A stretch of DNA of 4,949 nt from a virus (IMGVR_UViG_2529292882_000009), one strand, 5' to 3'; counted from the stretch's first letter, positions 1 through 4,354 are shown. Translations and numbers: made by a program. The notes: generated by a model from the sequence alone, not told the origin.

Positions 1-52
1 AATCCGCCTTAAATAACAGTTTGTTGCAGTTTTTACAGCGAATTGATTTCAT
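1..52 (-). CDS. com: N-terminal 17 codons (MKSIRCKNCNKLLFKAD) of a small Cys-rich zinc-finger protein resembling phage Mu Com, the translational activator of mom; gene continues beyond the window start
   Basis: Reverse complement of 1..52 reads ATG AAA TCA ATT CGC TGT AAA AAC TGC AAC AAA CTG TTA TTT AAG GCG GAT. AGGAGG Shine-Dalgarno (rc of 57..62) lies about 4 nt upstream of the ATG (rc of 50..52). The CxxC motif at residues 6-9 and the position immediately downstream of the invertase match the Mu gin-com-mom layout as I recall it. Too short for the ORF track; partial. Confidence 0.5.
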   Translation of the reverse strand, partial: MKSIRCKNCNKLLFKAD

Positions 53-134
53 CTCACCTCCTTTGCATCAATTCGCCACTATCTTAAAAAACATCGTGGG
101 TTAAGTGTGGTTATTAGGGCATAATCGATCTGTA
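53..134 (-). promoter_or_regulatory. Promoter/leader region for the Com-like gene (mom-operon-type, activator-dependent weak promoter)
   Basis: On the minus strand: candidate -10 TAAGAT (rc of 81..86), preceded by a T6 tract (rc of 86..91), candidate weak -35 ACCACA (rc of 106..111) with a suboptimal 19-bp spacer, then AGGAGG and ATG. Promoter elements are assigned by eye and by recollection of the Mu mom promoter (poor -35, T-tract in spacer); not experimentally anchored. Confidence 0.4.
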
Positions 135-161
135 TTACCGATCGATTTGATTGATTCGATC
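127..161. promoter_or_regulatory. Cluster of three GATC (Dam methylation) sites within 35 bp, upstream of the mom-type promoter and overlapping the invertase 3' end
   Basis: GATC at 127..130, 140..143 and 158..161, each inside an ATCGAT or CGATCG palindrome. The last two lie inside the final codons of the invertase (stop at 135..137). In Mu, three clustered GATC sites upstream of the mom promoter are the methylation-sensitive OxyR (MomR) repression site (established knowledge, recalled). Confidence 0.5.
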
Positions 162-728
162 GTCGTTTTCTATATGCGTTCGTTTCGCAGGGTGTTTTTT
201 ATACAGAGTTGACAGGGCCACATCGTAGATCAATGCGACCTGCTTGCGGGGGATTCCTTGTGCTAATAAACGCCCGGCCTGCTCCCACTCTGCTTTGGTT
301 AGTTTAGGTGGTCGCCCACCAATACGGCCTTTATTTCTGGCGGCAGCAAGTCCAGCCATCGTTCGCTCGATAATTAGTTCTCGTTCCATTTCAGCCAGAG
401 CACCCATAACGTGGAAGAAAAAACGCCCCATTGGAGAAGATGTGTCTATGTTGTCGGTCAGACTGCGAAAATTAATCCCTCGCTCCCGTAGTTCCCCGAC
501 GAGAGAAATCAGATGTTTCATACTTCGCCCGAGGCGATCCAGTTTCCAGACAACCAGCGTGTCACCTTTTTGAAGGCGCTTTAAAGCGCGTTTTAATCCC
601 GGTCGGTCTGTCTTTGTCCCGCTTAATTTATCTTCAAATATTTGTTCACATCCTGCACAAACAAGAGCGTTTCGTTGCAGGTCTGTATTCTGGTCATTTG
701 TTGATACCCTTATATAGCCAATCAGCAC
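135..728 (-). CDS. gin: Serine-recombinase DNA invertase, Gin/Pin/Cin/Hin family (resolvase-like catalytic domain plus C-terminal HTH)
   Basis: 197-aa ORF; N-terminus MLIGYIRVSTNDQNTDLQRNAL contains the catalytic-serine motif (YIRVST) typical of Gin/Pin/Cin/Hin invertases; C-terminal GRPPK...AIYDVALSTLYKK region matches the HTH DNA-binding domain. Start is GTG (rc of 726..728) with GGGAG Shine-Dalgarno (rc of 736..740) 7 nt upstream. Symbol gin is chosen because of the Mu-like neighbours (Com-like gene, GATC cluster); a Pin- or Cin-type orthologue cannot be excluded without alignment. Confidence 0.95.
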   Translation of the reverse strand: MLIGYIRVSTNDQNTDLQRNALVCAGCEQIFEDKLSGTKTDRPGLKRALKRLQKGDTLVVWKLDRLGRSMKHLISLVGELRERGINFRSLTDNIDTSSPMGRFFFHVMGALAEMERELIIERTMAGLAAARNKGRIGGRPPKLTKAEWEQAGRLLAQGIPRKQVALIYDVALSTLYKKHPAKRTHIENDDRINQIDR

Positions 729-781
729 TCTGGATCTCCCGTTTAAAAGCGCAAATCATGCCATGCAGGCCGGAAACAGCC

Positions 782-1755: not shown

Positions 1756-2289
1756 ATGATGCACTTAAAAAATATTACTGCTGGCAACCCTAAGACAAAA
1801 GAGCAATACCAGCTAACGAAACAATTTAACATCAAATGGCTTTATACAGAGGATGGGAAAAACTGGTATGAGGAACAAAAGAACTTTCAGCCTGATACGT
1901 TGAAAATGGTCTATGACCACAACGACGTTATTATTTGTATTGAAAAGGATGTTTCAGCAATTAATCCAGAAGGCGCAAGCGTCGTTGAGGTTCCTGATAT
2001 TACAGCAAATCGCCGGGCTGATATTTCGGGTAAATGGATGTTCAAAGATGGCGTAGTGATAAAGCGAACTTATACCGAGGAGGAACAGAGGCAGCAGGCA
2101 GAGAATGAAAAGCAAAGCCTGTTGCAACTTGTCAGGGATAAAACCCAGCTATGGGACTCACAGCTACGGCTGGGAATCATTTCCGACGAGAATAAACAAA
2201 AATTAACTGAGTGGATGCTCTATGCGCAGAAAGTCGAATCTACAGACACCTCCAGCCTGCCAGTAACATTTCCCGAACAACCTGAATGA
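1756..2289 (+). CDS. Alternative tail-fibre assembly protein / chaperone (U'-like), currently in the silent orientation
   Basis: 177 aa; starts 2 nt after the S' cassette stop; first ~125 aa closely resemble the 2318..2848 product ([22 protein letters not shown] vs [23 protein letters not shown]; shared [18 protein letters not shown]), with a divergent C-terminal third. Family assignment by position and paralogy. Confidence 0.8.
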   Translation: MMHLKNITAGNPKTKEQYQLTKQFNIKWLYTEDGKNWYEEQKNFQPDTLKMVYDHNDVIICIEKDVSAINPEGASVVEVPDITANRRADISGKWMFKDGVVIKRTYTEEEQRQQAENEKQSLLQLVRDKTQLWDSQLRLGIISDENKQKLTEWMLYAQKVESTDTSSLPVTFPEQPE

Positions 2290-2848: not shown

Positions 2849-4354
2849 TTACACCTGTGCGACGTTATACCATGTGCCATTGATGTATTTTTGTATTGGC
2901 CTGAAGATGGCTTCATCATCGCCATCTACTTCACCAATGATTCTTAATCCGGTAATTGCGTGTCCGGCTTTTTCATAACGACCACCACGCGCCATCAATT
3001 GAACAACACGTGTGCCAAGTCGGACATCTCTCACATAGCGTGAGTCAAAATTGCCATAATTGCCGGGAATAACTTGCGCACCACAAAGCCAGTTACCGTT
3101 ATTATCCATGTACGCCTGACCATCGGTGCCATTGGCTGTCCTTGAGTTATTAATCATGTAGATGCCAAATTGCTTGTTCCCCAGTCCACCTATCATGAAC
3201 TTTCGGTCGGCGTGATTCTGGCGAAGTAACGCCTGAGCGCTATCAGTGTTAACTATATTTTTCCCAAAGATAGCGTTGTTATCGCGCATCTGAATCCACA
3301 TACCATTACTGCTGTTAATAGCAAAACGGTCTGAAAGTGTCTCCCCTGAAACATTAAGACCACGCCCCATCGAAACAGCGCCAGTAGCGTTATTAATCCA
3401 TAATGGCCTTAATCCGTTATAAGTCCCCATGTTGTCACCGGAGTTTGTCAACATGAAGTATGTATTTGAACCATCATTACGAATAAAGAATCCGTAATTA
3501 CCATAAGCAATACGTAGGCCGTTTGCTGATTTTGATATGACTTCGCCATTTACAATGGCATTGACAAGAACATACAAAGCATCCCATTTAAGATTCATCA
3601 GGTCTTTTGTTGTGGTGCTCTGGCGGCTTCTCCATTTGAAATATTCATTGCCGTTGTCGCCTGTTTCAAACCACATGTATGAATCAGTGTCGCTGTCGGC
3701 ATCATTTTTAAATCCAATCTTTGCCCAGTCAGTATTCCGAATCCAGGCAAGGATTGAGTCGTTTTCAAAAGTAAGTCCGCCGGACAAGGTATCGCCTGTC
3801 TTTTGAACGGCGTTACCAGCCTTGTTTACCGTTTCCTGTAAACCGAGGTTTTGGATAAACAGCGGCTTATTGGGAATATCTGCTCCGTTCCGGTCTTTTG
3901 CCAGACGGGCATTGGCATTATCCATCGCAATTTTCACCGCTTTTGCGGTGGCTGCCAGCGTTTCACTGAGGCTGTCAGTGGCACTGGTTAGCTGAACGAG
4001 TCCTTTTTTGTTCAGGCTGGCATCATAGATATCCAGATTTTCACGTGCTGTACGCTGTGCTGATGCCCCGGCAATTTTAATTTCGCTGAGGTTATTTTTT
4101 ATCAGCAGCGCGTTATTGCTCATAATGGCTTTAATGGACAGTGCAAGCTGGTTTAATTTTGTTTTATCCGGTTGAATACCGGCTTCTTCCAGCGTGTTTA
4201 ATAACTCCGCCTGCACAATATTAAACCAGTCCATGCCGGGCCATGTGATAACATTATTCCCGTCACCTTCTGAAAACCAGCGAACGATAGCACTACGCTG
4301 GGCGGATACGGGCGGCATGACGGTTACGCCGCTGTCGTTATCAATATAAAACAT
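2849..4354 (-). CDS. Tail-fibre protein (S-like): constant N-terminal part (4354..3859) fused across the right inverted repeat to the currently expressed variable C-terminal part (3824..2849)
   Basis: 501 aa; GGAG Shine-Dalgarno upstream; start ATG (rc of 4352..4354) overlaps the upstream gene stop by 1 nt (TAATG). The inverted repeat encodes FIQNLGLQETVN in frame. C-terminal two-thirds are rich in N, G, W, Y as expected for a receptor-binding tip; ends RPIQKYINGTWYNVAQV. Confidence 0.9.
   Translation of the reverse strand: MFYIDNDSGVTVMPPVSAQRSAIVRWFSEGDGNNVITWPGMDWFNIVQAELLNTLEEAGIQPDKTKLNQLALSIKAIMSNNALLIKNNLSEIKIAGASAQRTARENLDIYDASLNKKGLVQLTSATDSLSETLAATAKAVKIAMDNANARLAKDRNGADIPNKPLFIQNLGLQETVNKAGNAVQKTGDTLSGGLTFENDSILAWIRNTDWAKIGFKNDADSDTDSYMWFETGDNGNEYFKWRSRQSTTTKDLMNLKWDALYVLVNAIVNGEVISKSANGLRIAYGNYGFFIRNDGSNTYFMLTNSGDNMGTYNGLRPLWINNATGAVSMGRGLNVSGETLSDRFAINSSNGMWIQMRDNNAIFGKNIVNTDSAQALLRQNHADRKFMIGGLGNKQFGIYMINNSRTANGTDGQAYMDNNGNWLCGAQVIPGNYGNFDSRYVRDVRLGTRVVQLMARGGRYEKAGHAITGLRIIGEVDGDDEAIFRPIQKYINGTWYNVAQV
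3825..3858. repeat. Right inverted repeat of the invertible segment (gix-type recombination site), inside the tail-fibre coding sequence
   Basis: tttaccgtttcctgtaaaccgaggttttggataa; its reverse complement differs from 783..816 by one base (A vs G, partner of position 802). Core dinucleotide at 3845..3846 (GA on plus, TC on minus) matches the left core. Confidence 0.9.

Follow-up and report, generated by a model that had tools for sequence, protein, structure and literature searches.

The stretch of DNA analysed here (4,949 bases, called the window throughout) carries at positions 53-175, on the minus strand, what is very probably the transcriptional control region of com and mom in a Mu-like (D108/Mu type) prophage of E. 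coli, and judged by its sequence this region should work as it does in Mu. The feature itself is already known: it is the Mu mom control region, in an allele common among E. coli Mu-like prophages. The added value of the analysis lies in a pair of GATC sites, 18 bp apart, that emerges as the conserved part of the operator across diverged com-mom lineages; otherwise no new biology is claimed. The presence of the control region places the window at the right end of a Mu-like prophage and predicts an anti-restriction DNA hypermodification function in the source strain.

All 4,949 bases of the window are 100% identical to an NCBI draft assembly (L010; GCA_000261385.1, scaffold JH768571.1), and a closely related prophage (L011) shares 99.96% identity with it. 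Among the complete E. coli genomes, no identical match to the whole window was found, the best reaching 96.5%. According to its ORFs and Pfam affiliations, the window holds the right-hand part of a Mu-like prophage in reverse orientation, with the following larger features:

135..728, minus strand: gin, the G-segment DNA invertase, 197 aa with a D108-type C-terminus (PF00239 and PF02796)
614-1753 and 1756-2289, plus strand: S'/U' tail-fibre set inside the G segment
2318-2848 and 2849-4354, minus strand: U/S tail-fibre set inside the G segment
4354-4896: Mu gp48-like gene

The G segment thus contains alternative tail-fibre and tail-fibre-assembly genes, two sets in all, flanked by inverted repeats. 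The repeats that bound this invertible segment are located at 783-840 and 3801-3858 (58 nt, 81% complementary), and U and U' form an additional inverted repeat of 351 nt (70%).

Window positions 1-760 match Mu-like phages over their full length with identities between 94.7 and 98.4% (PhiR68_1 98.4%, D108 97.1%, Mu 96.2% and SfMu 94.7%; several Yersinia Mu-like phages match as well), and the features annotated there are gin, a promoter and com. The Mu record AF083977.1 annotates this same part with a 'late promoter, PMID 2522923' in addition to gin, com (labelled 'translational regulator of Mom') with its ribosome-binding site, and mom. Mu and the window also agree in location: in both, the region lies between gin and com, with the Mu right end about 1 kb away. 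The control region was present in 46 of 5,426 complete E. coli genomes and was chromosomal in every case. One of its carriers, the complete prophage of E. coli SE11 (L015, NC_011415.1 2659800-2699000), is 100% identical over window positions 40-180 and has the full Mu gene order of repressor, transposase A/B, two Mor/C-family activator genes (L015 26475-26885 and 28245-28634), late genes, gin, com and mom. A C-family gene is thus present in a prophage with an identical control region; a cognate C gene in the window's own prophage would be hidden by the gaps of its draft scaffold. The SE11 prophage sits within a gene for an Rpn-family recombination-promoting nuclease, the halves of which flank it on both sides.

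The elements of the control region, with positions relative to the mom transcription start where these apply, are as follows:

158..161, minus strand: GATC site I (distal), -87 to -84, in the gin codons GAC GAT CGA
140..143, minus strand: GATC site II, -69 to -66, in the four-codon gin extension QIDR; in Mu proper just past the gin stop
127..130, minus strand: GATC site III (promoter-proximal), -56 to -53, abutting the C-binding dyad
128..175, minus strand: presumed OxyR operator over the three GATC sites, by homology to Mu
110..125, minus strand: predicted C-activator binding dyad ATTATGCCCTAATAAC, half-sites TTAT/ATAA, -51 to -36, overlapping the -35 and placed from the start coordinates
106..111, minus strand: -35 hexamer ACCACA of momP1, -37 to -32, matching TTGACA poorly and unchanged throughout the Mu type
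86..91, minus strand: T6 run that closes the 19-bp spacer (87-105) on its 3' side and shares one base, the first, with the -10; invariant in the Mu type
81..86, minus strand: -10 hexamer TAAGAT of momP1, inside the promoter feature of AF083977.1
74, minus strand: inferred transcription start of the mom operon (+1, G), 22 nt upstream of the com ATG and seven bases after TAAGAT
57..62, minus strand: Shine-Dalgarno sequence AGGAGG of com; the Mu annotation has a ribosome-binding site at the equivalent position
1..52, minus strand: first 17 codons of com, the zinc-ribbon translational activator of mom, opening MKSIRCKNCNKLLFKAD and cut by the window edge
120..125, plus strand: CATAAT, candidate -10 of momP2, overlapping a C half-site

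A preliminary description, made from the sequence alone, had likened positions 53-170 to the Mu mom promoter with its OxyR-bound GATC cluster and its C activator. This likeness is borne out by collinear near-identity to the annotated late promoter, and the elements named in that description agree with the published accounts (PMC2582627, PMC3378877, PMC7549136, PMC2909390). Within 53-170 the window and the Mu mom region align collinearly and gap-free with four differences in 118 bp, namely substitutions at 149, 116, 103 and 96, and share the three GATC sites, the C half-sites, ACCACA, the 19-bp spacer, the T6 run, TAAGAT, the Shine-Dalgarno sequence and the com start. The four substitutions thus spare the GATC sites, the C half-sites, the -35, the T6 run, the -10 and the Shine-Dalgarno sequence. 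In a gap-free alignment of seven sequences covering window positions 1-240 on the minus strand (among them Mu, D108, SfMu and other Mu-like phages), the three GATC sites, both C half-sites, ACCACA, T6, TAAGAT, the Shine-Dalgarno sequence and the first 17 com codons do not vary. Substitution 116 falls in the central, non-contacted spacer of the C dyad, which reads CCCT in the window, CCCC in Mu and TCTC in D108, and 103 and 96 fall in the spacer between -35 and -10; all three could in principle change the strength of the promoter. D108 also carries an extra gene after mom. The 160 nt of the window that end at the com ATG represent the commonest variant in the survey sample described below.

The substitution at 149 changes the Mu gin stop TAA to CAA and so lengthens Gin by four codons (QIDR), a tail that D108, SfMu and the Yersinia phages have too; the gin stop of the window, a TAA, is located at 137-135 on the minus strand. 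D108, SfMu, the Yersinia vB_YpM phages and the SE11 prophage all share the control region of the window and have, like it, a Gin of 197 aa that ends in QIDR. Since the extension runs through GATC site II, two of the GATC sites are coding here, as opposed to one in Mu. At positions 135-149, then, the regulatory DNA doubles as coding sequence in some Mu-like phages, but not in Mu.

The promoter momP1 consists of a poor -35 (ACCACA, 111-106), a 19-bp spacer (105-87) and the -10 TAAGAT (86-81), followed by AGGAGG (62-57), all on the minus strand; the preliminary description had listed each of them, and the positions that it gives for the -35 and the -10 are correct. The T6 run that had been described as the end of the spacer is present; its final T is, in fact, the first base of the -10 hexamer (T6 at 91-86), and the spacer itself ends in T5. 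ACCACA has been named the proposed -35 of Pmom, with the same 19-bp spacing (PMC2582627), and Pmom is known for its poor -35 and -10 elements, its suboptimal spacing and the curvature imposed by a 'T stretch' (PMC3378877), a '6T stretch' being common to Plys and Pmom (PMC4461284). A generic sigma-70 promoter scan of positions 1-800 reported no promoter, as is expected of an activator-dependent promoter with a 19-bp spacer. On the relevant strand of the same 800 positions, a terminator scan found no terminator. A reading of the intergenic DNA as an RNA element was rejected, as the fold of positions 175-40 (minus strand) had a z-score of +0.54 and the DNA separating gin from com thus shows neither a terminator nor a stable RNA structure.

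The transcription start at window position 74 follows, by analogy, from published oligonucleotide coordinates for Mu. Two independent placements lead to this base: the 78-bp Ptin7 fragment spanning -58 to +20 (PMC3378877), whose oligonucleotide ends in ...aaaggaggtg (PMC4461284), and the primer GGAATCCGCCTTAAATAACA, whose annealing site is put downstream of +56 (PMC3378877). With +1 at 74, the centre of the dyad ATTATGCCCTAATAAC falls between positions 118 and 117, that is at -43.5, in exact agreement with the published position. The C element is defined as a 16-bp imperfect dyad centred at -43.5, with a DNase footprint from about -30 to -55 (PMC2582627), and the 16-bp dyad at 125-110 corresponds to this definition and is predicted to be the C site. 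Its half-sites are invariant in the Mu type, and the variation is confined to the dyad spacer. C unwinds the out-of-phase promoter, recruits RNA polymerase and promotes its escape through the beta-prime subunit (PMC4461284; PMC4287176).

In Mu, a divergent promoter, momP2, overlaps momP1 (PMC3378877; PMC4287176), and C moves RNA polymerase from momP2 to momP1 (PMC4287176). The hexamer CATAAT at 120-125 on the plus strand, a good -10 sequence, is probably the -10 of momP2, because a 'P2 disrupted' oligonucleotide (PMC4461284) turns GATTATG into GGTTGCG and thereby alters exactly the CATAAT bases; no convincing -35 for momP2 could be assigned. The overlap of a C half-site with this -10 would explain the displacement of polymerase from momP2 upon C binding. 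Five Fis sites have been reported in Mu, centred at -123, -98, -49, -38 and +3 (PMC3378877), and these map onto window positions 197, 172, 123, 112 and 72.

Upstream of the promoter, three GATC sites had been noticed within 35 bp, and they are indeed found at 127-130, 140-143 and 158-161. The two sites at 140-143 and 158-161 lie in the final codons of gin, as had been claimed, and the third just outside, beyond the stop. The sites are spaced by 18 bp and 13 bp, as in Mu, and site I is invariant in all Mu-type sequences. CGATCG (PvuI) sites occur at 139-144 and 157-162, and their distance of 18 bp matches the 18-bp PvuI fragment of Pmom (PMC3378877). A conserved ATAG (173-170) indicates the upstream edge of the presumed operator, as does the place where phages with another gene upstream become homologous again.

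In Mu, Dam and OxyR govern mom transcription (PMC3378877), and Dam methylation of the three mom GATC sites prevents OxyR from binding (PMC7549136; PMC2909390). Searched with the 37-bp OxyR consensus (ATAGnTnnnAnCTAT-N7-ATAGnTnnnAnCTAT, Toledano), the window reached its top score, 13 of 20, at 128-164 and hence over the GATC cluster; 76% of shuffled sequences reached this score (shuffle mean best 12.99). OxyR binding at the cluster is accordingly predicted from homology to Mu rather than from the motif. The tetranucleotide itself is rare in the window, with 7 occurrences against 15.6 expected (from composition and from dinucleotide-preserving shuffles) and at least seven sites in 200 of 200 shuffles; three of the seven observed sites fall in the mom operator. 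The probability of finding three GATC sites within 35 bp is P = 0.004 if 7 sites are placed uniformly and P = 0.06 if 16 are. The clustering statistic is modest and would not carry the claim by itself; the decisive evidence is homology and conservation.

The value of P = 0.06 under the composition-based null is one reason to consider whether the GATC cluster is a by-product of the C-terminal coding sequence of gin or of simple repetition of the ATCGAT type, with the promoter as the only functional part. Two of the three sites are contained in gin codons here, and the sites sit in a repetitive ATCGAT/AATC context. Nevertheless, gin of Mu stops 12 nt earlier, and site II is identical there in spite of being non-coding. 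Published genetics moreover ascribes Dam/OxyR control to these GATC sites (PMC2909390; PMC7549136). Further evidence comes from a survey of Mom-relative loci in species-representative genomes and IMG/VR, from which the regions upstream of com were extracted, yielding 38 distinct sequences. In all Mu-type sequences, GATC is found at -109, -91 and -78 from the com ATG. Three loci (L031, L036 and L037) have an upstream gene other than the gin of Mu and D108 and still carry the same three GATC sites; their homology to the Mu type resumes at about ATATAGAAAACGACGATCG (window position ~175), just upstream of site I, and the module has its upstream limit there. Sequences of a diverged lineage (L017, L058 and L059; Com 63-69% identical) retain the three GATC sites at spacings of 18 and 13 bp, with different bases in between. 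The retention of GATC sites and spacing while their neighbours change means that conservation exceeds that of the coding and neighbouring sequence, which argues against a by-product of gin. An origin of the cluster in coding or repetition is thus extremely improbable.

Within this operator, the distal pair is the part most widely kept. The 18-bp GATC pair occurs in nearly all Enterobacteriaceae-type lineages among the 38 distinct sequences, even where Com is 56-74% identical, the flanks cannot be aligned and the upstream gene is not gin; the sole exception is L057, with three GATC sites at 31 and 13 bp. The third GATC, a further 13 bp on, is kept in two lineages and absent in another. A second, widespread lineage of about 20 IMG/VR loci (including L042, L046, L049 and L050; Com 72-74% identical) has the distal pair only. 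Its motif reads ATAG-N7-CGATCGAT-N10-TCGATCG, with two GATC sites 18 bp apart, followed by a C-like element AAATACCCCC; neither a third GATC nor T6 nor a TAAGAT -10 is present. Likewise, a Scandinavium MAG (L016) carries only the distal pair, 18 bp apart, and lacks T6 and TAAGAT. The conserved element ATAG-N7-CGAT that holds GATC site I recurs in diverged lineages. A scan of genome contigs with Mom yielded only three loci, of which a Magnetospira MAG (Mom 53% identical) was too short upstream to be informative. A com-mom lineage with two GATC sites was not found described in the searchable papers. Based on this distribution we tentatively suggest, as a possibility of rather low probability, that the distal GATC pair, 18 bp apart and preceded by the conserved ATAG, is the ancestral and most constrained part of the switch, and that the second lineage represents a variant mom control with a possibly different Dam/OxyR logic. 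In the window itself, the three spacer substitutions might tune promoter strength.

Downstream of the promoter, a Com-like ORF had been noted on the minus strand. The ORF is present: it starts with an ATG, opens MKSIRCKNCNKLLFKAD and runs off the window. The ATG is located at 52-50, which makes position 53 the last untranslated base. The DNA of the 17 com codons in the window is identical to that of Mu com. Beyond position 1, a com of about 60 aa overlapping a Mom gene had been predicted, and in L011 com encodes 62 aa (PF10122) and overlaps mom, encoding 231 aa (PF25680). The same arrangement was found in six further loci with identical Gin, in which com (62 aa, PF10122, Zn_ribbon_Com) overlaps mom (231 or 241 aa as called, PF25680); this exact Gin protein is encoded on many E. 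coli contigs. The Mom gene is therefore where it had been expected, but a designation as a classical acetyltransferase needs updating, since the use of Gly-tRNA(Gly) is now reported: Mom turns adenine in double-stranded phage DNA into N6-carbamoylmethyl-adenine with Gly-tRNA(Gly) as co-substrate, and so protects it from restriction (PMC13219725, 2026). Earlier work had described an acyltransferase-like fold of Mom (PMC7261163). The translation of mom depends on Com (PMC3378877).

In the source assembly, a gap of 710 N (L010 6729-7438) begins straight after window position 1 (L010 6728), which is why the window stops there; the assembly, rather than the genome, would consequently lack the greater part of com and the 5' portion of mom. 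The sequence resumes past the gap with 146 codons from the 3' part of mom (PF25680, matching profile positions 59-202) and then reaches the Mu right end, after which a second assembly gap occurs. An IS21-family element, consisting of an rve transposase and an IstB helper, is located at L010 9860-11661, about 2 kb beyond the Mu right end. As assembly gaps bracket the mom fragment and this element lies near it, the source prophage could be taken to be defective, with com-mom disrupted and the control region a decayed remnant that controls nothing; the gap is in addition 368 nt longer than the matching sequence in L011. Gap lengths in draft scaffolds are, however, estimates. The mom fragment is in frame and complete to its stop, and is followed by an intact Mu right end; the L011 prophage is intact, and the regulatory elements are all unmutated. 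Decay of the locus is thus very unlikely.

The course of events at this promoter can be proposed by carrying over from the Mu experiments the binding of OxyR, C and Fis, the dependence on Dam and the start site. momP1 would be intrinsically dead owing to the poor ACCACA, a 19-bp spacer that sets the two hexamers out of phase and the curved T6 run. As long as the late activator C is absent, RNA polymerase would be held at the divergent, overlapping momP2, and Fis would occlude the region. During late lytic growth, a C dimer on the dyad at -43.5 would unwind the DNA, bring RNA polymerase to momP1 and aid its escape from the promoter. The three GATC sites (-87 to -53) would lie in the OxyR operator, and their full methylation, the normal state in dam+ cells, would exclude OxyR; an unmethylated operator would bind OxyR and mom would be repressed, such that Mom would be made from Dam-methylated templates only. 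The transcript would begin at window position 74, com would be translated by means of its strong AGGAGG, and Com would then activate the translation of the overlapping mom. The product of mom would finally convert adenine in phage DNA to N6-carbamoylmethyl-adenine and thereby block many restriction enzymes. The mom region is in this respect a textbook case of layered control over a toxic phage gene, combining Dam methylation read by way of OxyR, an activator that untwists a mis-spaced promoter, a divergent decoy promoter, silencing by Fis, and Com as activator of translation.

The closest parallel to the GATC operator outside the Mu-like phages is agn43 (flu), which likewise has three GATC sites in an OxyR operator, where OxyR is kept off by methylation and, once bound, prevents methylation and acts as a repressor (PMC13337833; PMC2909390). 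Given this equal architecture, with Dam opposed to OxyR over three GATC sites (PMC13337833), mom might be phase-variable, with heritable ON and OFF states, instead of being subject to a simple check of methylation; whether mom phase-varies has been called not known (PMC2909390). The two systems differ, however, in that the agn43 operator is located downstream of or over its promoter and no phage activator is involved, whereas the mom operator is upstream (-53 to about -100) and the promoter needs C. As C is made in lytic growth only (PMC4461284; PMC2582627), a heritable state in the lysogen would have little chance of being read out. Phase variation of mom is for this reason regarded as unlikely.

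Among promoters of Mu itself, Plys, PI and PP resemble Pmom in their C dyad, centred at -43.5 across the -35 region, and in having a -10 that can be recognised; Plys also has T6. In contrast to Pmom, they possess neither a GATC/OxyR operator nor momP2 nor the proposed -35 hexamer. One study (PMC4461284) describes the action of C as a single step at Plys, PI and PP and as two steps at Pmom.
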